DNA from: Candidatus Entotheonellaceae bacterium
Lineage (GTDB): Bacteria > Tectomicrobia > Entotheonellia > Entotheonellales > Entotheonellaceae
Direction: 5' to 3'
Assembly (NCBI GenBank): GCA_965238075.1
Contig: OZ250173.1
Span: forward strand, 1,440,001-1,504,000
Length of the DNA stretch: 64,000 nucleotides
Each line of letters opens with the position of its first letter. Position 1 is the first letter of the stretch. Positions 3,444-39,627 of the stretch are shown piece by piece. The position numbers and the translations under genes are program-made. The notes beneath the pieces were generated by a model, which searched no databases, had not been told where the DNA came from, and saw only the letters and a program-made list of their open reading frames with translations.

Positions 3444-4319
3444 TTACAACGGTATGGGCATGACGTCCACCGCGACCTCCATGGTGTGGTTGCCGCCGCC
3501 GAGGAAGACGCCTTTGATGGGACTGACGTCGCCGTAATCGCGGCCGATGGCGACGGTGATGTGGCGGTCGGAGGGCCACATGTTGTTGGTGGGATCCACG
3601 TCGACCCAAGCGTGGCCGGGGCAGTAGACGGAGAGCCAAGCGTGCGAGGCTTCGGCGCCGATGAGCGGGTTGGGGCCGGACGACTGGGTGACGAGGTAGC
3701 CGCTGACGTAGCGGACGGCCAGGCCGAGGACGCGCAGGCAACCGATTTGCAAATGCGCGAAGTCCTGACAGACGCCGCGGCGGTGACGCATGACGTCGCC
3801 CAGCGGCGTGTTGACCGCGGTGGCTCCGGGGTCGTAAGTGAACTCGGCGTGGATGCGTTCGGTGAGGTCCCGGACCGCTTCGAGCAAGGGCCGCCGAGGG
3901 GTGAAGGACGATTCGGCGTACGCCAGCAATTCCGGGCTGGCCGCCACGTACGGGGAATCGAACACGAATTGAACCGCCTCCAGTCCCTCGGCGCTGCGGT
4001 CGTGACGCAGGCCGTCGCGCACGTCTTCCCACGCCGCCGAGACCGCCAGCGGCGGCAGCTCGAGCGGCGTTATCTCGACGATGCTGTTGGCCGTCATGGT
4101 CAGCGCCCAGTGCGGCTCTTGCAGGGTGAAGAAGGTCACCGGATTGCCGAAATAATCCCCCGACCGGCTCACCACCGGGGCTTCGGGGAACAACAGCAAT
4201 TCGTGGAATGAGCACGTCTGATGGCGGCACTGGCGCGGGCACAGGTGCAGCTTGTTGTGGCACACCGACACCGCGCTGGAGTAGGCATACGTCGTGGTAT
4301 GTCGCACGCGGTAGCGCAT
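3444..4319 (-). CDS. Transglutaminase-like protein with bacterial transglutaminase N-terminal domain
   Basis: YRVRHTTTYAY N-terminus; catalytic triad GVCQDFAH / SHAW / DVDPTN; GRDYGDVSPIKG. Confidence 0.95.
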   Translation of the reverse strand: MRYRVRHTTTYAYSSAVSVCHNKLHLCPRQCRHQTCSFHELLLFPEAPVVSRSGDYFGNPVTFFTLQEPHWALTMTANSIVEITPLELPPLAVSAAWEDVRDGLRHDRSAEGLEAVQFVFDSPYVAASPELLAYAESSFTPRRPLLEAVRDLTERIHAEFTYDPGATAVNTPLGDVMRHRRGVCQDFAHLQIGCLRVLGLAVRYVSGYLVTQSSGPNPLIGAEASHAWLSVYCPGHAWVDVDPTNNMWPSDRHITVAIGRDYGDVSPIKGVFLGGGNHTMEVAVDVMPIPL

Positions 4320-4326
4320 GGCCGCC

Positions 4327-6888
4327 TCAGCCGCCCGTCAGGGCGAGATGCCGCGTCAGTTCGGCGTGGCTCAAATAGCGATGCGTGATGGTATCCGAGA
4401 GCCCTGAAAAGTCCGCCTGAAGCTCTGCCAACGCCGTTTCCAGATGCCCGCGCCGCCCGTTCCGACCGATCTGGCACAGCACCTCGACCTCTGCCAGACG
4501 CAGCCGCGTGAGCATGGCCATCACCCGCCGTTGGGCCGGGCTCAAGGACGGCATGGCGTGGTCGCGCGGCAGGCGTTCGACGTGGTCGGCAAGCCGCACC
4601 AACTGGTAGACCACGGCGCGCGGATTGGAGTCGTCGGTGAGCAGCAGGTCCAGCACGGGCACGCATTGCAGCGTCGTGAGGTAGCGCGAGCGGTAGGTGA
4701 TCGAGCTGTCGCCGATCTCCAGCAGCGCCTCCAGTATCGACCCCTCCCGGTCGTCCGCATCGACGAGCGTGCTGCGCAGCAGGCCAGTGGTGTGCGCGGC
4801 ACGCTCCAGCCGCCGCCCGAGGTCCAGAAAATGCCACTCCGGGCCGCGAATCATGTTTTCTTCCATGAGGCCGCTGAAAGCCGACAGCATCATGATGGTG
4901 TGATCGATCAACGCCAGAGCGTCGGGCAGGCGTTCGACGTGATTGGCAAGCGGACGCCGGTTGAAGTCCTCGTCCAGGCGCGTGATGATGCGCCACGATT
5001 CGAGGGTCATGTAATCCCGCACCGTGGCCGCCACGCGATGCAGGGTGCCGAGGATGGCACGCACGCTGTGGGCGGCTTGCGGATCGAACAGGATCGTGAA
5101 TAGCGCCGCCGCCCGCGAAGCCAGGTCGTCCGGCTGATTCCCTGGGATTGTCAGGTGGCCAAACCCCCAGGTCTGCGCAGCGCGGAACAGCACGGGGAAC
5201 GCCGTGCTGCTTTTCAGCCCGGATTCGTCGTTGAGGCGGATCAACAGACTGCGCAGCAGGCGCACCAGCCCTTCGGCGCGCTCGCTGTGGCGGCCGATCC
5301 AGAACAGATTGTCGGCCGCGCGGCTGGGGAAGTCGTAACCGCTGCGGCGCAGCGCAATGGGCTGACCGGCCGGCGGCAGCAGCGTCAGGGTGTCGGGCTG
5401 GCCCTCGCACAGCACCCAGGTATCCTTGCTGCCGCTGTCGCTCTGCATCGATATGACCGGTGGGCCGTCGTTCGCCGAAACCCGCGTCAGGCCGCCCGAC
5501 ATGACCTTGTACGTGTCCCGCGCGGCCACCGCGTATGTGCGCAGAACCGTCTGCCGCGGTTGCACCCCGACGCCGTTCCACGCCGGCAGACTGGACAGCG
5601 ACAGACGTTGCTGGGCCGCGTATTCGCAGGGCCGCGCGCGCACCATGTCGACCATCTCACGCCGCTCGTCGCGACTCAGCCGATCGCCCCGCACCATGTC
5701 CCGCCCAGCGCCGGAGCGCATCGGCATGACCACGAGTTCCTCCACATGGTCCAGCACGTATGCCAGACTGTCCGCGTCCCCGCACCACCACGTCGGCGCT
5801 GACGGCAAGGCCAGTTCCTCGTCCAGCAGACGGCGGCACAGGGCGGGGAGAAACGGCATCAGCGCGGCGCTTTCCAGCCAGCCGCTGCCCAGCGCGTTGA
5901 CGACACTGACGTTGCCGGCCCGCACCGCTTGCAACAGGCCCGCGGTGCCGAGCAGCGATGCCTGATTCAGCTCGAGCGGATCGCAGAACGTGTCGTCCAG
6001 CCGCCGCAAGATGACGTCCACCGGCTGCAGGCCGGCCAGTGTTTTGAGATAGACGCGCTCGTCGCGCACCGTCAGGTCGCCGCCCTCGACCAGGGTGTAG
6101 CCGAGGTAGCGGGCCAGGTAGGCGTGCTCGAAGTAGGTCTCGTTGTACGGCCCGGGGGTCAGCAGCACGATGCGCGGGTTGTCGCGGTGGCGTGTCGCCA
6201 CGTCGTGCAGCGTCTGCCGCAGGGCCGCAAAGTATGATGCCAGCCGCTGTACCTGGCAGTCCCGCAGCGCCTCGGGCAGGATGCTCGACAGCACTTGGCG
6301 ATTCTCCAGCGCGTAGCCGGACCCCGCCGGGCTTTGGGCGCGGTCGGCCAGCACCCACCAATGCCCGTCCGGGGTGCGCGCGAGGTCGGCGGCGTAGACG
6401 TGCAGATAACAGTCGTTGGGTACGGTCAGGCCGTGGCAGGGCCGCAGAAAGCCGGCATGCGCGAACACCAGTTCCGGTGGCAGCAGCCCTTCGGCGAGCA
6501 GGCGTTGCGGGCCGTACACGTCTGCCAGCATGGCGTTCAGCAGCCGCGCCCGCTGCGCCAGGGCGGCTTCCAGGCACGCCCACTCCGCTGGCCCGATGAC
6601 CCGCGGCAGCGGGTCCAGCTCCCACGGGCGCTCCATGCCCCGTGCGTCGTCATACACGTTGTACGTGACGCCGTTTTCGTGAATCATCCGGCGCGCCTGC
6701 TGCCAGCAGTGCGCCAGTTCCCCTTGGCCCATGGCCTCGAGCGTTTGAACCACCTTCCGCCAATGCGGACGCGGCTCGCCGTCCCCGGCAAACGTCTCGT
6801 CGTACGATCCGGTCGGCGCGCTATAGCCGGCAAACAGGCCGCTACGCACCGCCCCCGCTGCCTCGCGTGTCGTGACGTGATGAGTCAT
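4327..6888 (-). CDS. Circularly permuted type 2 ATP-grasp protein fused to an alpha-E domain
   Basis: LLTPGPYNETYFEHAYLARYLG, RRLDD.FCDPLEL, GGLTRV, SKDTWV, then alpha-E (SRAADNLFWIGRHSERAE, GRRLERA). Confidence 0.95.
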   Translation of the reverse strand: MTHHVTTREAAGAVRSGLFAGYSAPTGSYDETFAGDGEPRPHWRKVVQTLEAMGQGELAHCWQQARRMIHENGVTYNVYDDARGMERPWELDPLPRVIGPAEWACLEAALAQRARLLNAMLADVYGPQRLLAEGLLPPELVFAHAGFLRPCHGLTVPNDCYLHVYAADLARTPDGHWWVLADRAQSPAGSGYALENRQVLSSILPEALRDCQVQRLASYFAALRQTLHDVATRHRDNPRIVLLTPGPYNETYFEHAYLARYLGYTLVEGGDLTVRDERVYLKTLAGLQPVDVILRRLDDTFCDPLELNQASLLGTAGLLQAVRAGNVSVVNALGSGWLESAALMPFLPALCRRLLDEELALPSAPTWWCGDADSLAYVLDHVEELVVMPMRSGAGRDMVRGDRLSRDERREMVDMVRARPCEYAAQQRLSLSSLPAWNGVGVQPRQTVLRTYAVAARDTYKVMSGGLTRVSANDGPPVISMQSDSGSKDTWVLCEGQPDTLTLLPPAGQPIALRRSGYDFPSRAADNLFWIGRHSERAEGLVRLLRSLLIRLNDESGLKSSTAFPVLFRAAQTWGFGHLTIPGNQPDDLASRAAALFTILFDPQAAHSVRAILGTLHRVAATVRDYMTLESWRIITRLDEDFNRRPLANHVERLPDALALIDHTIMMLSAFSGLMEENMIRGPEWHFLDLGRRLERAAHTTGLLRSTLVDADDREGSILEALLEIGDSSITYRSRYLTTLQCVPVLDLLLTDDSNPRAVVYQLVRLADHVERLPRDHAMPSLSPAQRRVMAMLTRLRLAEVEVLCQIGRNGRRGHLETALAELQADFSGLSDTITHRYLSHAELTRHLALTGG

Positions 6889-6891
6889 GCT

Positions 6892-7860
6892 TCAACCCCC
6901 GCCGCGCCGCTGTCCGCTCACCGGACGCATGGCAAAGAAGGTGTTGGAAATCTCGTCGTCCACCTGGTTGAGCTTGAACTGAAAGCGGTCCAGAAACTCG
7001 TGCAGCCCGACGCCGATGATCTCCTGAATGGCGGCGTAATCCAATTCCGAGCGCAGGCGGCCCAGGCGCTGCTCGGCCTCGTCTCGAAAACTGCCCATGG
7101 GGGTGCCGGAAACGAGGTGCAGCGAGGTTTCCGCTTCCACCAGACAGTAGTGCATGGCACGCGGAAACTCGCGGTCCAGCAGCAGGAAATCCGCCACGCT
7201 GACCGGCGTGATGCGCCCGAACCGCTGGCGGTACATCTCCAGTGCGCTGGCCGACTTGAGCACCGCCGCCCATTGGATGTCGTCCACCGGCGAGCCCACG
7301 TCGCTCGCCTGCGGCAGCAGCATGAAGTATTTCACGTCGAGGATGCGCGAAGTCTTGTCGGCACGCTCGATCAGCCGCCCCAGGCGCCCGAAGTGCCAGC
7401 CCTCGCCGTGCGACATGGTGGCGTCGGTGATGCCGACGAACAGATAGCTGGCGTTCTTCACGTCAGTGAAAAAATCGTGCGGCGTGTCCTGCGCCTGCCG
7501 GGCCGCTCGGCGTACCATGAGGTAGAACTTGTTGACGTGCTCCCACATGTCCGAGGAGATGATTTCGCGCACCGAGCGGGCGTTGTCGCGCGCCGCTTGC
7601 AGGCAGGAGAGGATCGAGTTGGGATTGGCGGTGTCGTGGGTGAGAAAGGTGAAGACGTTCTCCTTGGTGGCCGTCCCGTAGCGCCGGGCGAAGTCGTGGC
7701 GGTCGTCGGTAATGTTGACCAGCGGCTGCCACTGCTCCGGGCTGTCCGGCGACAGGTCGAGCATCAGGTGGAGATTCACGTCGATGAAGCGGGCGACGTT
7801 TTCGGCGCGCTCGATGTAACGGTGCAGCCAGTAGATGGATTCGGCAGCGCGGCTCAGCAT
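6892..7860 (-). CDS. Alpha-E domain protein (DUF403)
   Basis: MLSRAAESIYWLHRYIERAENVAR, ARDNARSVRE, GRLIERADKTSRILDVKY, FPRAM. Confidence 0.95.
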   Translation of the reverse strand: MLSRAAESIYWLHRYIERAENVARFIDVNLHLMLDLSPDSPEQWQPLVNITDDRHDFARRYGTATKENVFTFLTHDTANPNSILSCLQAARDNARSVREIISSDMWEHVNKFYLMVRRAARQAQDTPHDFFTDVKNASYLFVGITDATMSHGEGWHFGRLGRLIERADKTSRILDVKYFMLLPQASDVGSPVDDIQWAAVLKSASALEMYRQRFGRITPVSVADFLLLDREFPRAMHYCLVEAETSLHLVSGTPMGSFRDEAEQRLGRLRSELDYAAIQEIIGVGLHEFLDRFQFKLNQVDDEISNTFFAMRPVSGQRRGGG

Positions 7861-7862
7861 GG

Positions 7863-9304
7863 TCAGTCCCTCGCCAGCACCCAGGTGTCCTTGCTGCCGC
7901 CGCCCTGGGACGAATTGACCACCAACGAGCCTTTTTGCAGCGCGACGCGCGTCAGGCCGCCAGGCAGCACGTAGGGACGGCCGGCGCCGTACAGAATGTA
8001 GGGCCGCAGATCGACGTGGCGGCCTTCCAGCGCGCCATCGACGATCACCGGCGCACGCGACAGCGACAGGGTGGGCTGGGCGATGTAGTTGCGCGGGTTG
8101 GCCTCGATGGCCTCGGCAAACGTCTTGCGTTCCGCGGCCGAGGCGTGCGGGCCGATCAGCATGCCGCAGCCGCCGGATTCGTTGACCGCCTTGACCACCA
8201 GCTCGTCCAAGTGCTCCAGGACGTAACGGCGCTGCTTGTCCTCCCAGCAGACGTACGTCGGCACGTTGGGCAGCACCATGTCCTCGCTCAGGTAGTAGTC
8301 GATCATCTGCGGCACGTAGGCGTACACGGCCTTGTCGTCCGCCACCCCGGTGCCGGGAGAGCGTTGGCCAGCGCCACCCGGCCGGCTTTGTACGCCTGCA
8401 TGAGGCCGGGAACGCCGAGATAGGAATCGGGCCGGAAGGTCAGCGGATCGAGAAAATCGTCGTCGATGCGCCGGTAGATGACATCCACGCGCTGGAAGCC
8501 CTTGGTCGTGCGCATCATGAGGAGGTTATCCACCACTGCCAGGTCGCGGCCCTCGACGAGTTCCACGCCCATCTTCTGCGCCAGGAAGGCGTGCTCGAAA
8601 TAGGCCGAGTTGTAAATGCCGGGCGTGAGCACCACCACCGTGGGATTGGGCACCCCCGCCGGCGCCAGGGACTGCAGCATGTCCAGCAGGCGGCTGGGAT
8701 AGTCGTCCGCCGGGCGCACCTGCGAGACCTCGAACACCTGCGGGAAGGTGCGCTTGAGCACCTGGCGGTTTTCCAGCACGTACGACACGCCGGAGGGGCA
8801 GCGCAGGTTGTCTTCGAGCACGTAAAGCTGCCCGTCGCCGTCGCGCACCAGGTCGATGCCGCTGATGTGGCACCAGATGCCCTGCGGCGGGTTGAGCCCG
8901 ACGCACGGCTGCAGAAAGTTGCGCGCCGACAGGACGAGCTCTTCCGGCACGACGCCGTCCTTGAGGATGCGCTGGGCGTGATAAATGTCGTCAATGAACA
9001 GGTTGAGCGCCTGGATGCGCTGCTTCAGGCCGTCCTCGATGGTGGCCCAGTCCGCCGCGCCGACGATGCGGGGCAGGATGTCAAACGGAAAGATGCGCTC
9101 GGTGCCGGCCTCGTCGCCGTAGACCGTGAACGTGATGCCGAGGTTGAGCAGGTCGCGCTCGGCCGCCTGCTGCCGCCGCACCAGTTCGCCTTCCGGCAGC
9201 GAGGTGACGCGCTCCAGCAGCGGCGCCGCGCCTGGACGAGCCTGCCCATCCTGACGAACCAACTCGTCGTAGAATCGTCCGGTATCGTAGGCCGCGAGCT
9301 TCAT
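7863..9304 (-). pseudogene. Circularly permuted type 2 ATP-grasp protein split by a 2-bp insertion near 8358
   Basis: ORF 8303..9304 ([37 protein letters not shown]) and ORF 7863..8345 ([22 protein letters not shown]) join into [11 protein letters not shown] when one CT is removed from AACGCTCTCCCGGC. Confidence 0.9.
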
Positions 9305-9366
9305 CCGGCGGCTCCCTGTGAACGGCTCCGTAAGGGTAGAATAAGATGGCTGCAGGACAGGAGATA

Positions 9367-9383
9367 AGCAAAAAGTGTACCAG
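9367..9383 (-). promoter_or_regulatory. Sigma-54 (-24/-12) promoter of the ATP-grasp operon
   Basis: Minus strand CTGGTACACTTTTTGCT = TGGYAC-N5-TTGCW with exact GG-N10-GC spacing, about 60 nt upstream of the ATG at 9304. Confidence 0.75.
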
Positions 9384-9491
9384 AAACATCAGAAGCGGGC
9401 CGCACGCCGTCTGCCCGACAATCCCTGGGATTGCCCGTGGAGCCAGCGGCCGGCCCCTAGCCTGCCGACGATACCCATCTGCGAAAACACG

Positions 9492-9503
9492 GACAAATTT
9501 GTC
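9492..9503. promoter_or_regulatory. Perfect palindrome GACAAATTTGTC, candidate enhancer/regulator site
   Basis: 12-bp perfect inverted repeat flanked by two AAAACACG copies, about 110 bp upstream of the sigma-54 motif. Confidence 0.4.
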
Positions 9504-9700
9504 AAAACACGTACGTTATTGCACAATCGGCGGGGGGCACGGTTAGGGTAAGGATTGATGTTCTGGCAACAAGACATGTGCTGAAGGTCTTGGCGACGGT
9601 ATCCCCTGCCGAAGGCATCCGGGGAAGCCGAGTGCCAACAAAGCCGGATTATCCTCAACCTGTGATATGATTCCTCAAACTTCAAGACCTTGGAGGCCCC

Positions 9701-10126
9701 ATGCAAAAGGCATGGAATTGGATCAAAGACAATGCGGGAGCCATAACGGCAACCATAATGGCAATCACCGTCATCCTCGGCGGATTCACCGGAATCATCC
9801 AATTTGGCATTATCAATCCCATGAACCAACGCTTTGACACCATTGACCAACGCTTTGACGCCGTTGACCGACGCTTCGACGCCGTTGACCAACGCTTCGA
9901 CGACCTCAGAGCGGAAATGAACAGCCGCTTCGACGCCCAAGACAAATACATGAACGCACGCTTTAACGCGGTAAACCAACGTTTCGATGCTCAGGATCAG
10001 CGCCTCCAGCGCCTGGAAAACGACGTCTCGGAACTTCGCAAGCTCAGCGAGCGCGTCTCCCGAAACGAAGGACAGATCGACCTCATCAGGCAGCAACTGC
10101 AAACCGCCGCCGCACCCTCGCCCTGA
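9701..10126 (+). CDS. Membrane-anchored coiled-coil protein with QRFDAVD heptad repeats
   Basis: GGAGG RBS; N-terminal hydrophobic helix; repeated xRFDxxD heptads. Confidence 0.8.
   Translation: MQKAWNWIKDNAGAITATIMAITVILGGFTGIIQFGIINPMNQRFDTIDQRFDAVDRRFDAVDQRFDDLRAEMNSRFDAQDKYMNARFNAVNQRFDAQDQRLQRLENDVSELRKLSERVSRNEGQIDLIRQQLQTAAAPSP
9827..9904 (+). repeat. 21-bp coding tandem repeat, about 3.7 copies
   Basis: CAACGCTTTGACACCATTGAC / CAACGCTTTGACGCCGTTGAC / CGACGCTTCGACGCCGTTGAC / CAACGCTTCGACGAC. Confidence 0.9.
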
Positions 10127-10143
10127 ATACAACACAAGCCCAC

Positions 10144-11283
10144 GTGACGCAGACAGATCCCGACGGTTACGACATAGGGCGCAATTCACTTTTTGTGCAA
10201 AGCCGCCAATCCCCAAGACGTCAAACCGAGGCACGACCCATCCAGAAGACGCCCTTAAACCCCGTCGGACACATCGCCGCACCGCTCCTGCATGCCTTCT
10301 ACCAGCAGGTATACCAACACGCCGGGGTGCCGGACGAGGACGCCGCGGCAGTCGCCGACGCCCGCTTGCAAAGCACCCTTCGCCAGCCCGCCGGATTCGA
10401 TGCCTTCAGCGTCGCGCGGCTGCAAAACACCGTCCGCCGCTTGCAGGCCGGCGGTATCAACCCGACACCGCAGATTCGAGTCGTCCACGAACGTGGCCCG
10501 TTCGCCCTGCTGGACGCCGACAACGGCTTGGGTCCGGTGGTCGGCATGCGGGCGATGACGCGCTGTCTGGAGGCGGCAGGGGTAGGCGGATTTGCGCTGG
10601 TGGGGGTGCGAAACTCGACGACGCTCGGCACCATGGCGACGTACGCCATGCGAGCGTTGACCGAAGGCTTCCTGGGATTCGTCGGTACCAACACAGAACT
10701 GAAGATCGGCTTGCCACCCTGGGGCGGGCTGACCCCGGCGCTTGGCAACAACCCCTTCGCGGTGGCCATCCCCCATCGTCACGGCGCGCCGGTCGTGTTG
10801 GACATGTCGCTTATCGCCACCCAGCCGCAGGACAGCGCCGCGGCGGCGGAAACGCCTACCCGCGGCCCCTTGGGCAGCGATTTCCTCGCCCGCCCGATCA
10901 TCGGCGCCCACAAGGGCTACGGCCTCGCCGTGGTATTGGAAGTTCTGTGCGGCGTGCTCACCGGCGCCGGTTTCGGGCAGGCCCACGCGCCGAATCAACT
11001 CGCCGATCCGCAGACCCGTCACGACCTCGGGCATTTGTTCGTCGTGCTCGATCCGACTGTGTTCATGCCGCGCCACGAGTTCGAAGCGCGCATCGAGCAA
11101 TTGTGTGCGGAGATCAAGCAATCCGAGCCCGCGCCCGGCGTGCCGCGCATCCTGCTGCCCGGCGAGCTGGAACACGAACGGTGCGAAGCACGGTTGCGCC
11201 ACGGCATTCCCGTGCGGGCCGACGCGCAGAAGGCTCTGCTGGCGCTCTGCGGTGAGTTGGGTATCGCGTCGCCGTTGGCGTGA
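10144..11283 (+). CDS. Ldh_2 (type 2 malate/L-lactate dehydrogenase family) oxidoreductase; true start may be downstream
   Basis: LDADNGLG, LGNNPFAVAIP, VLDMS, GAHKGYGLA, RILLPGELE. Confidence 0.85.
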   Translation: MTQTDPDGYDIGRNSLFVQSRQSPRRQTEARPIQKTPLNPVGHIAAPLLHAFYQQVYQHAGVPDEDAAAVADARLQSTLRQPAGFDAFSVARLQNTVRRLQAGGINPTPQIRVVHERGPFALLDADNGLGPVVGMRAMTRCLEAAGVGGFALVGVRNSTTLGTMATYAMRALTEGFLGFVGTNTELKIGLPPWGGLTPALGNNPFAVAIPHRHGAPVVLDMSLIATQPQDSAAAAETPTRGPLGSDFLARPIIGAHKGYGLAVVLEVLCGVLTGAGFGQAHAPNQLADPQTRHDLGHLFVVLDPTVFMPRHEFEARIEQLCAEIKQSEPAPGVPRILLPGELEHERCEARLRHGIPVRADAQKALLALCGELGIASPLA

Positions 11284-17335: not shown

Positions 17336-17980
17336 ATGACGCGCCGCGCTGCTGTGTGCACCCGTCGTTACCGTTTCAGAACGCCGATAACCATCGCCGT
17401 TGCGGGATTCGTTCTCTTGTCGCTGTCCCTGTCGGCCGTCATGACGCAGACGGCACCCCAAGCGGCCTTGTCAGCGGGCAGGTTTCTCGTCGCCAGCAAA
17501 CAACTCCGGGACCCCAATTTCTCGGAAACCGTCGTCCTGTTGCTCAACTATGGCGCGCGAGGCGCGCGGGGTGTGGTCATCAACTGGCCGACGGAGGTGA
17601 AACTGGCCACGATGTTTCCCGAAATCAGGGGATTGCAGCGGCGCGTGGACACCGCCTATCTCGGCGGACCGGTAGAACGCACCCGCCTGTTGATGCTCCT
17701 GCGCGCCGACAAGCCGCGCTCCGGCGCCGAACACGTCGTCGATGACATCTACGTCAGCACCAACCGCCGGGTGCTCTTTGACGCGCTCGGCAGAGCGGGC
17801 TCCGCGACATCCGTACACGTTTACGCCGGCTACGCGGGATGGGCGCCGGGGCAGCTTGACCGTGAGGTGGCGCGCGGCGACTGGCACGTCCTGCCCGCCG
17901 ACGCCGAAGCCGTGTTCAGCACAACGCCGACTGAGGTGTGGCGCGAGTTGATCGACAAGGGTGCCGTGCAGTGGCTGTAA
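17336..17980 (+). CDS. YqgE/AlgH family protein with signal-peptide-like N-terminus; start uncertain
   Basis: [45 protein letters not shown]. Confidence 0.88.
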
Positions 17981-18089
17981 CGGCCTTGAGAAGGCGGCCC
18001 GACACCGCATAAGGTCAGTGGCCCAGTTTGAAATAACCAACCCATACGCCCCCATCCCCAGGCGAGACACTGTCTGCATAAGGAACGTC

Positions 18090-21077
<2,988 letters not shown>

Positions 21078-21085
21078 TGTGGGTT

Positions 21086-21112
21086 GTCGGGTAACGCCTG
21101 CGGCCAACCTGG
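21086..21112 (-). repeat. Degenerate family A REP-like palindrome
   Basis: Reverse complement CCAGGTTGGCCGCAGGCGTTACCCGAC shares the GCCGCAGGCG loop, immediately after the glyQS stop. Confidence 0.65.
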
Positions 21113-21551
21113 GGACACAACGGTCCGCCTTTCATATGAGAATGCCGAAACCCAATGCGCTGGATTGTTTGCCAGCTAACCATTCGACATAGCTGGGGGA
21201 GGATGGTAGAGATCGATAAAATCAGATCCGCCAGGTGTGAAGTCGCGGCCATTTCAGGGTGACGCCTCGATAACGCACAACGCAGGAACAGGGCGGTAAC
21301 TGCAATGGAATGTCCCACTTCATCACGTTTTCCCGTCAGGTGAAAAGTGATACCATGCCGCGAGTTGTGGGAATTCCTCAGCCGGTGGAGCGGGGAATAA
21401 ACATCAGCGGTCCGTCGTTTCTCGCTAACACTTGCGGTGCGTGCCAGTGAGATCCACCGATACTGCAGACCCGGGGCGGGGGATTGTGGCGAGGGCTCGG
21501 GTGCCGTCGTGTGTAAACCCTATAGAAGAACGCTTAGGGAGGAAGTGTGCC

Positions 21552-21770
21552 ATGAGTTCCATCTTCTCCAGGAAGTCCCTGAGGTTTCCGGCGTTAATGG
21601 GCGTCGTGTTCATTGTGCTGGCGCTCGCAGCCGTTTCCCGGTCCGACACGGAGCAGAACACGGATGCCGGCCAGGGAACGGTAATTGCCATGCGGGCGTC
21701 GGGGGCAGCAAATCCCTGTGCGGCGGCAAACCCGTGTAACCCGTGCAACCCCTGCGCGGCCGGCAACTAA
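21552..21770 (+). CDS. Small secreted Cys-rich peptide (72 aa) with four NPC motifs
   Basis: AGGGAGG RBS; signal-like MSSIFSRKSLRFPALMGVVFIVLALAAVS; C-terminus GAANPCAAANPCNPCNPCAAGN*. Confidence 0.8.
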   Translation: MSSIFSRKSLRFPALMGVVFIVLALAAVSRSDTEQNTDAGQGTVIAMRASGAANPCAAANPCNPCNPCAAGN

Positions 21771-21793
21771 CCGATTCGGTAACCCATCCGGTA

Positions 21794-21832
21794 CCCTGGC
21801 GGTCGGGCGCTCCATGCCCTGTCCCGCCAGGG
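21794..21832 (+). terminator. GC-rich stem-loop after the NPC peptide gene (attenuator or mRNA stabiliser; no U-tract)
   Basis: CCCTGGCGG (21794-21802) pairs perfectly with CCGCCAGGG (21824-21832), with an inner GGGC/GCCC. Confidence 0.5.
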
Positions 21833-21857
21833 CGCCCAGCGTCACGGAAAGCGGACC

Positions 21858-22832
21858 ATGCAACCAGACCCCGGAAGCCCTCATACCTGCACGAAACCAG
21901 CCTGTCGGCCTCGTGCCCACCTCGCCCTGCAACCCCTGACCGCCCTCCTGGCGGCTTGGTTGCTGTTCGCTATCCCGGCAACAGCCAGCGCCGCGTTTGC
22001 CGCCCAGCCGCCGGAGGAAACACTCGAAGCCTACCTCCGAGCCATCTACGCCCGCGACTTCGCCACGGCCTACGAGTTGATTGCGCAAGCCGACCGCAAA
22101 TTGAAAACCAAGCGCGACTACGTCAAGGAAAACGGCGCCTTCTCGGGCGCCGCGCTCGACCTCACCGCCCTGCTGGCGGCGTTCATCCGCTTCGAGTACA
22201 GCGGCATCAACATCAAGGGCCAGGACGACGCCACCGTCACCTTCAGGGCCATCGTGCCGGACACCGATGACCCGGCCCTGCGCGCCCTCCTGCTCGGCTT
22301 TGACCAACAGGGCCTCAAGGCGCTTCCCGCCGGCGAGCGCGCCGCCCGAAGCCGGCGACTGCGGCAACTCGCAACCGCCAACGAATTACCCCTCATCACC
22401 GGCGACGAGGAGACCTGGACCCTGGTCCGCGAACACGGCGAATGGCGCGTCGTACTGGGCTGGACCGCGGCCCTCGAGATTCATTTCGAGGCGCAGACGA
22501 TGGCCGGTCTGCCGTGGTCGTTCGCACCGCTGCAGCCGACCCTGCGCGTCATGCCCGGCGAAACCCTGCAGACCTACTATCGCGTCAAAAATTTGGCCGA
22601 CACACCCGTTACCGGCAAGGCCCGGCACGTCTTCGTGATCCCGGAGCACGCCGACTACCTCGACATCATCTACTGCTTCTGCTACTTGCAGCAAACCCTG
22701 GCGCCCGGTGAGGAGAAACAGTTTGCCGTGGTCTTTCGGCCCCGTTACGAAACCCCGGACACCATCACCGATCTGTACGTGCGCTACGAGTTCTTCCCGC
22801 TCGACGCATTTCCCGTTGAACCTAGCAAGTGA
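21858..22832 (+). CDS. Exported protein with a C-terminal CtaG/Cox11-like copper-chaperone domain and an extra N-terminal domain
   Basis: Signal peptide ending ASA-AFA; LPWSFAPLQ..V.PGET...YRVKN..PVTGKA..YCFCYLQQTLAPGEEK...YEFF is the Cox11 pattern with the CFC motif. Confidence 0.8.
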   Translation: MQPDPGSPHTCTKPACRPRAHLALQPLTALLAAWLLFAIPATASAAFAAQPPEETLEAYLRAIYARDFATAYELIAQADRKLKTKRDYVKENGAFSGAALDLTALLAAFIRFEYSGINIKGQDDATVTFRAIVPDTDDPALRALLLGFDQQGLKALPAGERAARSRRLRQLATANELPLITGDEETWTLVREHGEWRVVLGWTAALEIHFEAQTMAGLPWSFAPLQPTLRVMPGETLQTYYRVKNLADTPVTGKARHVFVIPEHADYLDIIYCFCYLQQTLAPGEEKQFAVVFRPRYETPDTITDLYVRYEFFPLDAFPVEPSK

Positions 22833-22868
22833 CCCATCGCCTTGTCCCTGTCGCCTGAGGAGAATTCC

Positions 22869-23255
22869 ATGCTGAAACCACCCCCGCGCCTCTCTGCTCT
22901 GGCCCTTGCCTGCCTACTGCTGTGGCCGCTGGCCAGCCAAGCTCAGGACGCCGCAGCCGGCCAGGAAATCTATACGCAATACTGCGCTCTGTGCCACGGC
23001 CCGCAAGGCAAGGGCGACGGCTCCCTGTCGGCCAACCTGGACCCCAAGCCGCGCAACCACACCGACGGCGCCTACATGAACGCCCTGAGCGACGCCCACC
23101 TCCTGAAGATCATCGGCGGCGGCGGCGCGGCGGCGGGGCTGTCGCCCATCATGCCGGCCTGGGGGGCCATCCTGTCGGCGCAGCAGATCCAGGACGTGGC
23201 CGCCTTTGTGCGCACGCTCGCCGTGCCGCCCTACACGCCGCCGGCTGACGAATAG
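22869..23255 (+). CDS. Monoheme class I cytochrome c, exported
   Basis: Signal peptide ending SQA; CALCH heme motif; GKGDG, PKPRNHTD, distal Met in IMPAW. Confidence 0.92.
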   Translation: MLKPPPRLSALALACLLLWPLASQAQDAAAGQEIYTQYCALCHGPQGKGDGSLSANLDPKPRNHTDGAYMNALSDAHLLKIIGGGGAAAGLSPIMPAWGAILSAQQIQDVAAFVRTLAVPPYTPPADE

Positions 23256-36317: not shown

Positions 36318-37133
36318 TCACCAAGCCAGTAGATCGCTTTCCCGGCGGTCGGTGATGAACATGTGGCCCGGTGCGTGAGTGAGGGCGATGTCGGGCTTGG
36401 TCTGCATCATGACCGCCTGGGGCGTGACGCCGCAGGCCCAGAAAACGGGCACGTCGTCGGGTTCCAGGGGCAGGGGGTCGCCGAAGTCCGGCTTCTGCAA
36501 GTCGTCGATGCCCAGGGCCGCCGGGTCGCCGACGTGGACCGGCGCGCCGTGCACGGCCGGGAAGCGGCTGGTGATTTGAACGGTGCGCACCACCTGGGAT
36601 TGCGGGATGGGGCGCATGCTGACGACCATCGGGCCTTGGAAGCATCCGGCGGGCTTGCAGGGGCGGTTGGTGATATACATGGGCACGTTACAACCCAGCT
36701 CCCAGTGCTTGAGGCGAATGCCGGCCGCCATCAGCGGATGCTCGAAGGTGAAGCTGCAGCCCAGCAGGAAGCTGACCAAGTCGTCCCGCCAGTATGCCGA
36801 CAGGGTGTCGGTCTCATCACTCAGTTCGCCGTTGCGGTACACCCGATAGCGTGGCACGTCGGTGCGCAGATCGGCGCCGGGGGCCAATTCGCGCGGCTCG
36901 CCGTCGCCCGCGTCCAGGACTTCCAGCAGCGGGCAGGGTTGCGGGTTGCGCTGGCAGAAGAGCAGGAAATCGTAGGCCAGGGCGCGGGGAACGATGGCCA
37001 CGTTGGCCTGCGTGTACCCCGGAGCCAGGCCGGCTGTGGGGGTGCGCCATTGACCGGCGCGAATGAGTTCGCGCAGCTGACGGGGCGTCCGGTCCGCCAA
37101 GTTTTGCAGGGCGGGCTGGGCGGCGACCATCAC
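36318..37133 (-). CDS. Putative hydro-lyase / D-glutamate cyclase family (DUF1445)
   Basis: [50 protein letters not shown]. Confidence 0.92.
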
Positions 37134-37327
37134 GCGGCTCCTTCGGCCTCGTGCCCGACGGCAGAGGCAGCGGTTTCCAGTCGGGCCACCAGGTCATCCG
37201 AGCGCTCCAGGGCGGCCTCGACGGAGCCGTATTCCGGCCAGAAGCGGAACAGGATTGTCAAGCCCAGGCTGACGCCCAGGCAGATCACCGCGAAGATCGT
37301 CAACGTCACGGCTGTCGTCATTCTCAT
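37130..37327 (-). CDS. Small single-TM membrane protein
   Basis: Hydrophobic helix [26 protein letters not shown]; stop overlaps the next start. Confidence 0.6.
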
Positions 37328-37349
37328 CCTTTCGTCAGGGCACCGGAGA

Positions 37350-37634
37350 TTAAGGGCCGGTGCCGCCGCTGGGTTCATCCTCTATTTCGACAAATTCAAG
37401 GGTCGGCATGGCGTCCGGCGCGGCGGTTGTGATGCCGGGCGCGGGCGCCGCCGTTGTGGGTTCGGGGGCTGCCGGGCGGGTGCGGTTCGCCGCGGCCTCG
37501 CTCAGGTCCAAGACGACGCCGGGTGGCCGGACGCGCAGGCCGACCTGCGCCTTGAAGGCCGACAAATCGCCGCCACAGCTTCGGCAGGTATCGAGGTAAT
37601 CGTGGCTGACGTAGTTGCAACCGGGGCACTTCAT
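37350..37634 (-). CDS. Small zinc-ribbon protein
   Basis: MKCPGC...CRSCGGDL (two CxxC) plus a Pro/Ala-rich tail; GGAGG RBS. Confidence 0.7.
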   Translation of the reverse strand: MKCPGCNYVSHDYLDTCRSCGGDLSAFKAQVGLRVRPPGVVLDLSEAAANRTRPAAPEPTTAAPAPGITTAAPDAMPTLEFVEIEDEPSGGTGP

Positions 37635-37718
37635 CAGCTGGCCTCCCAGAGTACTTTCGGATTAAGACGCTTTGCATCTGGAGCGTGTCTTCCTGATGCA
37701 ATCAGATACGGAAATACT

Positions 37719-39413
37719 CTAAGCGCCGCTCAGCACTACGCGCTCTTGATACTCGCCGAAGACGCCGCGCAGGGTGTCGGCAATCTCGCCCAGGGTGGCG
37801 TAGCTCTCGACCGCAGCGATCAGCGGCGGCATCAGGTTGTCTGTGCCGCGCGCGCACTGCTCCAGGGTTTGCAAGGCGGCGGCCACCTGGTGACTGTCGC
37901 GTTGCGAGCGCAGGGCCTGCAAGCGGGCGATCTGCTGTTTTTCGAGGGCGGGATCGATGTGCATGATCGGCGGGGTGGCGTCTTCGTCCATGGTGAAGGC
38001 GTTCAAACCGACGATGAGCCGCGTTTTATCCTCAATTTCCTTCTGGTACATGTAGGCGCTCTGTTGGATTTCGTGCTGCTGAAAGCCGGACTGGATGGCC
38101 TTGACCGCGCCGCCCATGGCGTTGATCTGCTGGATGTAGGCGCGTGCGCCCGCCTCAATGGCGTCCGTCAGCGCCTCGATGGCATACGAGCCGCCGACCG
38201 GGTCGATGACCTTGGCGACACCGGTTTCGTGGGCGATGATCTGCTGGGTGCGCAGGGCGATCTGCACGGCCTCCTCGGTGGGCAGGGCAAGGGCCTCGTC
38301 GCGCGAGTTGGTATGCAGGGATTGGGCGCCGCCGAGGACGGCCGCCATCGCCTGGATGGCCACCCGCACGATATTGATGTTCGGCTGCTGAGCGGTCAGG
38401 CTGCTGCCGGCCGTCTGGGCATGAAAGCGCAGCATCTGGGCGCGCGGGTTGTGCGCCCGAAAGCGATCGCGCATGATGCGGGCCCACAGCCGCCGCGCCG
38501 CCCGGAACTTGGCGATCTCCTCCAGAAAGTCGTTGTGGACGTTGAAGAAGAAGGAAAGCTGCGTACCAAAGGTATTGACGTCGAGCCCGGCTTCCAGCGC
38601 CGCCTCGACGTAGGCGATGCCGTTGGCCAGCGTAAAGGCGACTTCCTGCACTGCGGTGGAGCCCGCCTCGCGGATGTGGTAGCCGCTGATGCTGATAGTG
38701 TTCCAGCGCGGCAACGCTTCTTGCGCGTAGGCGAAAACGTCCGTGATCAGCCGCATCGAGGGGCCTGGGGGGTAGATGTAAGTGCCGCGGGCGATGTATT
38801 CCTTGAGGATGTCGTTTTGAATCGTGCCGGTGAGCTTGGCGGGTTCGACGCCCTGCTTCTTGGCCACGGCGATGTAGAGGGCCAGCAGCGTGGCGGCGGT
38901 GGCGTTGATGGTCATGGAGGTGCTGACGCGGTCGAGCGGGATGCCGTCGAGCAGCGTTTCCATGTCTTGCAGCGACGCAATAGCCACGCCTACTTTACCA
39001 ACCTCGCCGGTAGCCATCGGGTGGTCCGAGTCATAGCCGATCTGGGTGGGCAGGTCGAAGGCGACGCTCAGGCCTTTCTGGCCGCGCTCCAGCAGGAACT
39101 TGTAGCGCTGGTTGGAGGCTTCCGCAGTGCCGAACCCGGCGTATTGGCGCATGGTCCACAAGCGCCCGCGGTACATGGTCGGATGGATGCCGCGGGTGAA
39201 CGGAAACTGACCGGGAAAGTTGAGATCCTCAAGGTGGTCGTCTTCCGAACGATCCAGCGGTGTGTACAGGCGGGCAACCGGCAGCCCCGAAAGGGTCTTG
39301 AACGCCTCCTGCCGCTCCGGTGTCCGCGCCAAGGCGGGCTCGACGACCTCCGTGTCCCACTGCCGGCGCTGGACGGCAATGTCCTCCAGCCCATTGCGTT
39401 CCTCTCGGGCCAT
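37719..39413 (-). CDS. Methylmalonyl-CoA mutase family, stand-alone substrate-binding (large) subunit
   Basis: [62 protein letters not shown]; no C-terminal DxHxxG B12 domain. Confidence 0.95.
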
Positions 39414-39627
39414 CTCGAAACTCCTGATCGTGTTCGATGTACTGCTACTGATTCATGTGGGTGGGGGTTGTGCCTGACAACGCGGCGACTATACAACGCC
39501 CCGTTGGGCATATCCAGCCCGATGCCCGTTTTCCCCGCCCCAATCCTTGTGTGAAGAAGGTTGAGCCCCTTTAGGGCTTCTGTTACTTTACGCAGCGGTG
39601 CAGTGGACCAACATCTGATGAAAGAGG

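Follow-up and report, generated by a model that had tools for sequence, protein, structure and literature searches.

A candidate metal-binding peptide with Asn-Pro-Cys repeats in an Entotheonellaceae genome and the widespread, unnamed family to which it belongs

The peptide gene and its neighbours

The subject of this analysis is a small gene in a Candidatus Entotheonellaceae bacterium that encodes a peptide with repeated Asn-Pro-Cys (NPC) units. It was studied within a window, the whole 64,000-nucleotide stretch of contig OZ250173.1 (assembly GCA_965238075.1, positions 1,440,001 to 1,504,000 of the forward strand), and all coordinates are those of this window. The gene lies on the plus strand at 21552-21770, from an ATG at 21552 to a stop codon at 21768-21770, and appears in the list of open reading frames (ORFs) with a translation of 72 residues, MSSIFSRKSLRFPALMGVVFIVLALAAVSRSDTEQNTDAGQGTVIAMRASGAANPCAAANPCNPCNPCAAGN. 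A Shine-Dalgarno-like GGGAGG (21537-21542, +) can be read 9 nt upstream of the ATG. Residues 1-28 (21552-21635, +) resemble a signal peptide or membrane anchor by a heuristic of charge and hydrophobicity, with basic residues R7, K8 and R11 preceding a 16-residue hydrophobic core (residues 13-28) whose Kyte-Doolittle 11-mer means reach 2.95. Export through Sec is the likely outcome, a call backed by members of the wider family described below, which show clear AxA sites immediately ahead of their repeats. The C-terminus, GAANPCAAANPCNPCNPCAAGN, contains all four cysteines within 15 residues. They fall in the NPC run itself (residues 54-68; 21711-21755, +; direct reading), NPC-AAA-NPC-NPC-NPC, one to each of the four units; the spacers are AAA and AA, and the peptide ends in CAAGN.

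The codons of the four units differ at silent positions (AAT CCC TGT, AAC CCG TGT, AAC CCG TGC and AAC CCC TGC). A DNA pattern for NPCNPC gives two overlapping matches here and none elsewhere in the 64 kb, a number reached in 0 of 100 shuffles, and Tandem Repeats Finder detects no more on the run than a short array of three 9-bp copies at 88% matches. The ORF, its ribosome-binding site, signal-like N-terminus, repeats and codons had all been placed correctly in a preliminary description of the window, which also read the codon variation as a sign of selection on the peptide. This reading is borne out by the relatives discussed below, in which the peptide repeats persist while their number changes in frame.

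Searches with Pfam and NCBIfam models on the peptide and 11 homologues returned sub-threshold noise alone (TgpA_N, SCO2584_fam), and the ESM Atlas gave a best score of 0.75 and no named cluster. Rfam gave no match over the whole window at gathering thresholds and none on 21000-21900 at E<=1. A haem-binding peptide could be ruled out, as the peptide contains no CxxCH motif. By the sequence evidence, window 21552-21770 is a genuine conserved gene.

Relatives of the locus could be found in a protein collection. These include an identical 72-residue peptide (P0122), the 84/85-residue P0001 and P0123, and the 77-residue P0002 and P0124; the five sense-strand variants (72 to 85 residues) share a common leader and carry 4 to 7 NPC units. 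A 113-aa ORF on the opposite strand (21425-21766, -) is probably a non-coding shadow, with [QH]-G-[LF] triplets that mirror the NPC units. Because relatives of the peptide were few compared with those of the Cox11-like protein encoded downstream, the antisense ORF was used as a further query, and this returned four more loci (P0200-P0203) at which gene callers had picked the antisense strand. Their triplets imply about 11 NPC units in P0200 and about 7 in P0202. That the gene is the truncated leader of a cytochrome gene could be ruled out in this clade: 5/5 sense-strand relatives are stand-alone, and in the window the next gene is 87 nt away.

That 87-nt spacer ahead of the Cox11-like gene holds a GC-rich hairpin (21790-21836, +) with perfect 9-nt arms at 21794-21802 and 21824-21832. 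The 96-nt segment folds at -40.6 kcal/mol (z = -2.15), and 7 of 200 shuffles fold equally well. The hairpin is without a U-tract, and a promoter and terminator scan found no canonical terminator and no sigma-70-like promoter; a search for inverted repeats in the 474-nt upstream spacer and its surroundings found this hairpin alone. It may act as a terminator, an attenuator or a 3'-end stabiliser.

Downstream of the hairpin lies a gene for a 324-residue, exported-looking two-domain protein (21858-22832, +). After a signal-like N-terminus come an unassigned domain of about 150 residues and a C-terminal Cox11/CtaG domain: residues 204-313 match PF04442 (CtaG_Cox11) at E 8e-23 and 81.6 bits, over a cutoff of 25. 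The CFC motif, identified by alignment, is Cys273-Phe274-Cys275 (22674-22682, +). It is at least 90% conserved in 43 aligned homologues, and no further cysteine is conserved. The AlphaFold2 model is a confident two-domain structure (predicted local distance difference test score, pLDDT, 88.9; predicted template-modelling score 0.80). Its top Foldseek match in the PDB is 1so9, apoCox11 (CtaG) of S. meliloti, at E 2.4e-8 with 43% identity and a template-modelling score of 0.67 on the target, and phmmer aligns the same protein at E 4e-21 with the CFCF of 1so9 over CFCY. Sequence, CFC motif and predicted fold thus agree in making it a true Cox11-domain protein. We do not call it an orthodox CtaG, since it scores 86.7 bits against the NCBIfam CtaG equivalog PRK05089, below the cutoff of 162. 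Orthodox CtaG has a third conserved cysteine and a membrane anchor that abuts the domain, whereas the present protein has a cleavable-looking signal and an intervening domain of about 150 residues, its family keeps the two CFC cysteines alone, and no oxidase genes lie in the window. Its 96 homologues come from sources that include metagenome-assembled genomes (MAGs) of Tectomicrobia, Methylomirabilales, Acidobacteriota and Anaerolineales, the closest named one being a 'Candidatus Tectomicrobia' MAG protein with 78% identity.

Next comes a 128-residue, exported-looking monohaem class I cytochrome c (22869-23255, +; haem motif CALCH at 22983-22997), which matches PF13442 at 49 bits (cutoff 27) and PF00034 at 47.3 bits (cutoff 21.3). 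The preliminary description had given this same-strand order of hairpin, CFC protein and cytochrome, and had stated that haem-copper oxidase genes were missing; both points were upheld, the latter by a Pfam scan of 49 further window ORFs, which found no haem-copper oxidase, MNIO (DUF692) or radical-SAM family and no DUF2063-type partner. An acyl-CoA synthetase ORF begins 14 nt past the cytochrome c ORF.

The linkage of peptide, Cox11-like, cytochrome c and acyl-CoA synthetase genes is probably conserved in the clade, judging from contig sizes that coincide. Peptide-locus P0002 and Cox11-like P0047 are both on contigs of 11,968 bases, P0201 and Cox11-like P0030 on contigs of 27,982 bases, P0200 and acyl-CoA synthetase P0195 on contigs of 40,149 bases, and P0001, Cox11-like P0131 and cytochrome c P0174 all on contigs of 1,723,029 bases. 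On this basis the arrangement would be kept down to about 84-88% identity of the Cox11-like protein.

The NPC-repeat family and its partners

The peptide is not confined to this clade. An initial search brought up 19 more peptides with unrelated leaders and the same design, a signal peptide and then runs like AANPCNPCNPCAAKNPC. A profile built from 32 stand-alone peptides, of which 31 family members align with the window peptide, hit 456 representative clusters at E<=1e-3 and 114 at E<=1e-10 among 1.84 billion. In addition, a DNA pattern for NPCNPCAA was run against GTDB species genomes and matched at least 127 stretches, of which L001-L125 were kept, with full flanks for 80. Hosts among the matches listed are mostly marine Alphaproteobacteria, joined by Gammaproteobacteria, one betaproteobacterium, Thermoanaerobaculia, Pyrinomonadaceae, 'Entotheonella', Nitrospinota, Acidimicrobiia and Leptospirales. 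Neither Pfam nor NCBIfam has a model that matches the family, and searches of 8.1 million PubMed Central (PMC) papers and 0.36 million bioRxiv preprints brought up nothing relevant to the NPC motif, to DUF6969 or to a link between P460 and formylglycine. By sequence, the window peptide is the stand-alone form of a widespread and unnamed family composed of a signal peptide and (NPC)n.

The repeat itself is well defined. Across 1638 repeat-region cysteines in 82 proteins, Asn stands at -2 in 75% and Pro at -1 in 79%, and position +3 is taken by C, K or A, with no fixed Arg. The commonest inter-unit spacings are none (552), AAK (134), AAA (51) and AA (47), and members end in a sequence of the ...NPCAA[KGN] type, to which the window peptide conforms. 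Since AlphaFold2 places the entire repeat of a 113-residue member below a pLDDT of 50 (residues 39-113; overall 47.8; 32-sequence alignment), the repeat is predicted to be disordered. Such predicted disorder would fit a tail that becomes ordered only when it binds a metal. In some members the repeat, with 44 to 52 units, makes up most of the protein: two P460 fusions (L022 9779-11092 and L038 9496-10824) have 44 NPC units each, and a 420-residue protein (L043 8813-10075) has 52. Many alphaproteobacterial members, including L001, L008, L022-L024, L035, L056, L072 and L076, carry a hydrophobic V/I-Q/E-I/L-A-A-C motif right before the first NPC unit, which could be a recognition or processing site. 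Beside one NPC cytochrome gene (L054 9868-10944, +), an overlapping frame reads GEEPVC repeats, probably an artefact of reading the repeat DNA in an alternative frame.

Partners of the repeat were sought in 78 loci with at least 2.5 kb of sequence, using crude ORF calls and BLAST clustering with repeats masked. Partner counts refer to the 69 loci in which an ORF carries three or more NPC units, which leaves out 9 of the 78; all neighbour counts are raw with respect to shared ancestry and hold for the listed genomes, whatever the basis on which these were sampled. An NPC run is placed N-terminal to a cytochrome P460 domain (PF16694) at 25/69 loci and flanks a SoxA/TsdA-type cytochrome c (PF21342) at 12/69, among them 'Entotheonella' L006. 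A protein of the FGE-sulfatase fold is encoded within three genes at 23/69 loci and DUF6969 at 27/69, with one or the other at 34/69. At least one of these four usual partners is found at 51/69 loci, and at 27 of the 36 loci that have at least 5 kb on either side. Stand-alone NPC peptides are present at 36/69 loci, and in 5 of the 11 full-flank (at least 5 kb) loci that have stand-alone peptides alone, no usual partner was seen. Seven orphan loci have mutually unrelated neighbours, with nothing recurrent and nothing copper-related among them.

The same association can be seen in the profile hits. Among the best 150, 61 exceed 140 residues; PF21342 is found in 18 of these (16 at or above the gathering score), a CCP_MauG-type haem motif alone in 2, P460 in 6, LysM in 3, and YHS, PDZ, DUF5666 and a sub-threshold low-complexity match in 1 each, with nothing in 29. 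Other NPC fusions at the loci involve DM13, YceI and DUF6789. Taken at the level of sequence, the NPC module has been attached repeatedly to periplasmic redox metalloproteins. The preliminary description had counted an absence of NPC peptides beside copper or cytochrome genes as evidence against its proposal; the repeats are in fact very often fused to cytochromes or next to them. It had also allowed that the ORF might be the truncated leader of a longer cytochrome gene in relatives. A signal peptide with an NPC run does make up the N-terminus of a longer cytochrome c at the 12 TsdA-type loci, including 'Entotheonella' L006, but 36/69 loci have stand-alone peptides and so do the close relatives. 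In L006 ('Entotheonella' DD2) the leader and pre-repeat linker of the fusion (9764-10801, +; …DTMVMAKANPC) resemble those of the window peptide (…GTVIAMRASGAANPC), and an AhpC/Redoxin-like ORF (9287-9565) stands immediately 5' of it.

The FGE-like proteins that were checked have signal-like N-termini and a conserved C-terminal cysteine pair. Proteobacterial ones end in GGSW-DDxGCG[VI]CRPAARH, so that the pair is CG[VI]C, and two from Acidobacteriota carry CSxNYC. A cysteine pair is thus retained at the site where FGE binds Cu(I). Their closest solved relatives are ToxD, SUMF2 and FGE; for DUF6969 and the NPC-P460 fusion, no solved structure was found. FGE-like genes also occur within three genes in Thermoanaerobaculia L002 and Pyrinomonadaceae L018, so that the link recurs in Proteobacteria and Acidobacteriota, with different FGE subtypes. 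DUF6969 conserves QYYYHxH...EHGHFHTF and has no signal peptide in the sequences inspected. Further recurring neighbours in the 78 loci are a sensor kinase (18), glutathione reductase (11; TIGR01424 at 626.5 bits against a cutoff of 606), the YeeE/Sulf_transp sulfur transporter (11), a c550-like cytochrome (8), DUF302 (5), gamma-glutamyltranspeptidase (3) and glutathione S-transferase (3). Annotation covered 48 of the 86 representatives of clusters recurring in at least two loci, plus sets of 19 and 10 proteins.

Possible roles of the repeat

The reading that we favour, tentatively and at a probability of roughly 0.38, is that the NPC peptide serves redox metalloproteins in the periplasm as an arm with several thiolates, on which Cu(I) or a different soft metal is bound. 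Sec export would leave a short, disordered mature tail with four Asn-Pro-Cys units, and this run would be a flexible thiolate arm for the reversible binding of a thiophilic ion, with Cu(I) as the best guess. The arm might buffer the ion or pass it to neighbouring periplasmic metalloproteins. In the window clade, the recipient would be the Cox11-domain protein that keeps the two CFC cysteines alone, and the adjacent cytochrome c could be its redox partner. Export, metal binding, the choice of Cu(I), the hand-over to Cox11 and co-expression are all steps that we infer. Soft-metal binding is favoured because of the Cox11 neighbour, the two-cysteine nature of its family, the cysteine pair in the FGE-fold neighbours and the precedent of bufferins and oxazolins.

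Comparison with known systems can help to place the peptide. Bacterial metallothioneins and copper-storage proteins (SmtA, MymT, Csp) are cytosolic except for Csp1; they are likewise small and cysteine-rich, with CxxC-type spacing (here C-N-P-C), and the NPC peptide, like them, would probably be ordered only when metal-bound. It differs in that it appears from its sequence to be exported, shares no sequence similarity with them and has a strict Asn-Pro before each cysteine. Bufferins and the Buf_EGKCG/oxazolin precursors offer another comparison. According to PMC12452194, these are copper-chelating cysteine peptides with a Sec signal, a periplasmic location and a cysteine-bearing core (repetitive in oxazolins), and they are modified by MNIO enzymes. 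Fusions of Buf1, Cytochrom_C and FGE-sulfatase domains are also reported, and the authors read FGE as a cuproenzyme (PMC12452194). As with the NPC family, bufferins are at times joined to cytochrome c and found together with FGE-sulfatase domains, and a sizeable share of precursor genes is unlinked to the tailoring enzyme (PMC12452194). The NPC peptide differs from them in having an NPC unit instead of EGKCG or bufferin domains, a run predicted to be disordered and not a beta-helix, and no MNIO (DUF692) or DUF2063 partner in the window or among the annotated recurring neighbour clusters. An MNIO/DUF692 neighbour had been proposed for tabulation in the preliminary description, and none was seen.

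Several observations weigh against a copper role. The window Cox11-like protein gave 0 tblastn matches in the 125 listed NPC loci, and the window cytochrome c gave weak matches alone, in L006 and L070 (L087 duplicates L070). In the other direction, FGE-like, DUF6969, P460 and TsdA-type proteins gave 0 tblastn matches in the 64-kb window. No copper chaperone, Cop, Sco, PCuAC or CusF-type protein is found among the annotated recurring neighbour clusters. The fused P460 and TsdA-type cytochromes c are haem proteins, not copper proteins, and the recurring non-haem neighbours (glutathione reductase, YeeE, DUF302, gamma-glutamyltranspeptidase and glutathione S-transferase, at the counts given above) lean to thiol and sulfur metabolism. 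A tripeptide as near-invariant as N-P-C would suit recognition by an enzyme, or a specific turn, better than a simple cluster of thiolates. At the locus itself, a hairpin stands between the peptide gene and the Cox11-like gene, the linkage in relatives is deduced from matching contig sizes, and the closest Cox11-like cluster at 90% has 34 member sequences against 5 sense and 4 antisense peptide-locus sequences. Given the absence of Cox11-like genes from the listed loci and of any recurring copper gene, the Cox11 pairing is specific to the window clade. The idea of a copper module built with Cox11, put forward in the preliminary description, is accordingly supported in part: the true Cox11 domain and the probable linkage in the clade make it plausible locally, and it does not extend to the NPC family in general.

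The lack of recurrent copper genes, the haem fusions and the thiol- and sulfur-flavoured neighbours mean that two other roles remain serious, both of which are compatible with metal binding and need not exclude it. One is that the haem enzymes have the NPC cysteines as their working substrate, whether in cis or in a free peptide: SoxA/TsdA-type and P460-type cytochromes would either oxidise these cysteines to disulfides or load them with sulfane or thiosulfonate sulfur. The peptide would be a redox or sulfur shuttle of the periplasm that feeds electrons to c-type cytochromes, and in the window the cytochrome c, not Cox11, would be the relevant neighbour. We think this somewhat unlikely. SoxAX loads a cysteine on the flexible arm of SoxY, and the predicted disordered NPC arm would suit such a swinging carrier. 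NPC runs are found on both sides of the SoxA/TsdA-type domain in 12/12 such locus proteins, PF21342 is found in 18/61 of the long hits, the glutathione reductase, YeeE, DUF302, gamma-glutamyltranspeptidase and glutathione S-transferase genes recur, a Redoxin-like ORF precedes the 'Entotheonella' fusion, and the hosts include the sulfur oxidisers Thioploca, Sedimenticolaceae and Leucothrix. However, the NPC proteins have many cysteines where SoxY has one, and they lack the SoxY fold; SoxYZ, SoxB and Dsr genes are absent from the annotated recurring clusters, and no sox genes lie nearby. P460 chemistry concerns nitrogen, not sulfur, the window has no SoxA/TsdA-type domain and its cytochrome c is an ordinary class I protein, and the FGE-like/DUF6969 pair and the Cox11 neighbour are left unexplained. 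The other role, which we hold to be unlikely, is that NPC is the recognition motif of a periplasmic FGE-like oxidase with DUF6969 as helper, the cysteines being converted to formylglycine or another oxidised species. This would be a new type of ribosomal modified peptide or tail, and for the window peptide the modifying enzyme would have its gene elsewhere in the genome. The gene linkage (one or both partners at 34/69 loci) speaks for it, as do its recurrence across phyla with two FGE subtypes, the signal-like N-termini and cysteine pair of the FGE-like proteins, their kinship with ToxD, SUMF2 and FGE, and the strictness of the N-P-C unit, which suits enzyme recognition. A hairpin directly after a small precursor gene is also common in modified-peptide operons, and one lies right after the peptide gene here. 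In sulfatases the FGE motif is C-x-P-x-R, likewise a short Cys/Pro motif; in NPC, by contrast, Pro precedes the cysteine, there is no Arg, the copies run to tens in tandem and no sulfatase domain is involved. Moreover, the FGE-like and DUF6969 genes are missing from the window, 5 of 11 stand-alone-only loci with long flanks have no usual partner, and the FGE-sulfatase fold includes non-catalytic or non-FGE members (PvdO, EgtB, GldK, SUMF2). DUF6969, having no signal peptide in the sequences inspected, would work in a different compartment.

It is distinctly improbable, in our view, that the NPC run is a passive element, that is, a disulfide-stapled spacer, a tether or a multimerisation hinge, with the window peptide a detached remnant of little function that came to lie beside the Cox11-like and cytochrome c genes by accident. 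Free drift of the repeat number (4 to about 11 in close relatives, up to 52 elsewhere), predicted disorder, the joining of unrelated domains (P460, TsdA-type cytochrome c, DM13, YceI, DUF6789, LysM, PDZ), the hairpin that parts the peptide gene from the downstream genes, and orphan loci with unrelated neighbours would all agree with a passive role. An inert linker would not, however, be expected to have such specific recurring neighbours, nor to conserve the N-P-C unit so strongly across phyla, and stand-alone peptides with their own signal peptide and ribosome-binding site occur at 36/69 loci and are kept in the window clade. Finally, we give hardly any credence to the frame being a chance product of a 9-bp DNA repeat, or to the 113-residue antisense ORF being the real gene. 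The gene is short, its G+C content at third codon positions (GC3) is 0.77 where its neighbours have 0.81-0.88, and the antisense ORF is annotated instead in some assemblies. Against this, the sense frame has a ribosome-binding site, a signal-like leader and a family of 456 clusters, its repeats vary in frame and its NPC codons differ at silent positions, while the antisense product belongs to no family, its GC3 is lower (0.71) and its repeats simply reflect NPC.

A more far-reaching reading, which we hold to be unlikely, takes the NPC repeat as the mark of an undescribed periplasmic system spread over several phyla. Ribosomally made poly-(NPC) tails and free peptides would be serviced by a dedicated Cys-pair FGE-like oxidase together with DUF6969, and would give haem enzymes (cytochrome P460, SoxA/TsdA-type cytochrome c) a built-in arm with copper, a thiol or sulfur as cofactor. 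This would be a second, MNIO-independent route to periplasmic cysteine-peptide metallophores. In the window clade a stand-alone member would have been recruited to provide the thiolate or Cu(I) that a two-cysteine Cox11-domain chaperone lacks.

The rest of the window and the meaning of the family

A fused glycyl-tRNA synthetase lies upstream of the peptide gene, and the remainder of the window is housekeeping. The synthetase (17961-21077, +) unites the alpha and beta subunits in 1038 residues (PF02091 and PF02092); its exact sequence is missing from the protein collection, perhaps owing to a different annotated start codon. On the minus strand at 7863-9304, matches to one circularly permuted ATP-grasp profile (CP_ATPgrasp_2) are divided between two ORFs that overlap: 8303-9304 covers its first 239 positions and 7863-8345 its last ~130. 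The two look like one gene broken by a frameshift or a sequencing error. They sit in a CP-ATP-grasp/Alpha-E/transglutaminase cluster (3444-9304) that also contains an intact, fused copy of 853 residues. A 1063-residue ORF at 36363-39551 (+) has no Pfam match and a GC3 of 0.66 against 0.8-0.9 in its neighbours, and may be foreign or fast-evolving. At 60192-63038 (+), an MmeI-like type IIL restriction-modification enzyme with MmeI_Mtase, MmeI_hel and MmeI_TRD domains is encoded beside small ORFs of low GC3 (0.44-0.68); because of these low values, a mobile or defence islet is possible at the end of the window.

The handling of copper and of reactive thiols in the periplasm is an active field, in which bufferins and oxazolins have recently been described, and the NPC family belongs with the periplasmic, cysteine-rich ribosomal peptides. 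More interesting than the local copper module is the family itself, together with its P460, TsdA-type cytochrome, FGE-like and DUF6969 context: it comprises hundreds of clusters, has no model, turned up in no paper in the searches of PMC and bioRxiv and has clear-cut partners. Cultured carriers such as Aestuariispira insulae, Thalassospira aquimaris, Pelagibius marinus and Vreelandella utahensis make it testable. If the tails bind copper or carry sulfur, the view of these cytochromes would change and DUF6969 would gain a role. Alternatively, if the tails are substrates of FGE-type enzymes, the known chemistry of the FGE fold would widen. For the Entotheonellaceae bacterium, the favoured reading of the window locus would, if true, suggest how a two-cysteine Cox11-domain protein obtains or holds Cu(I).

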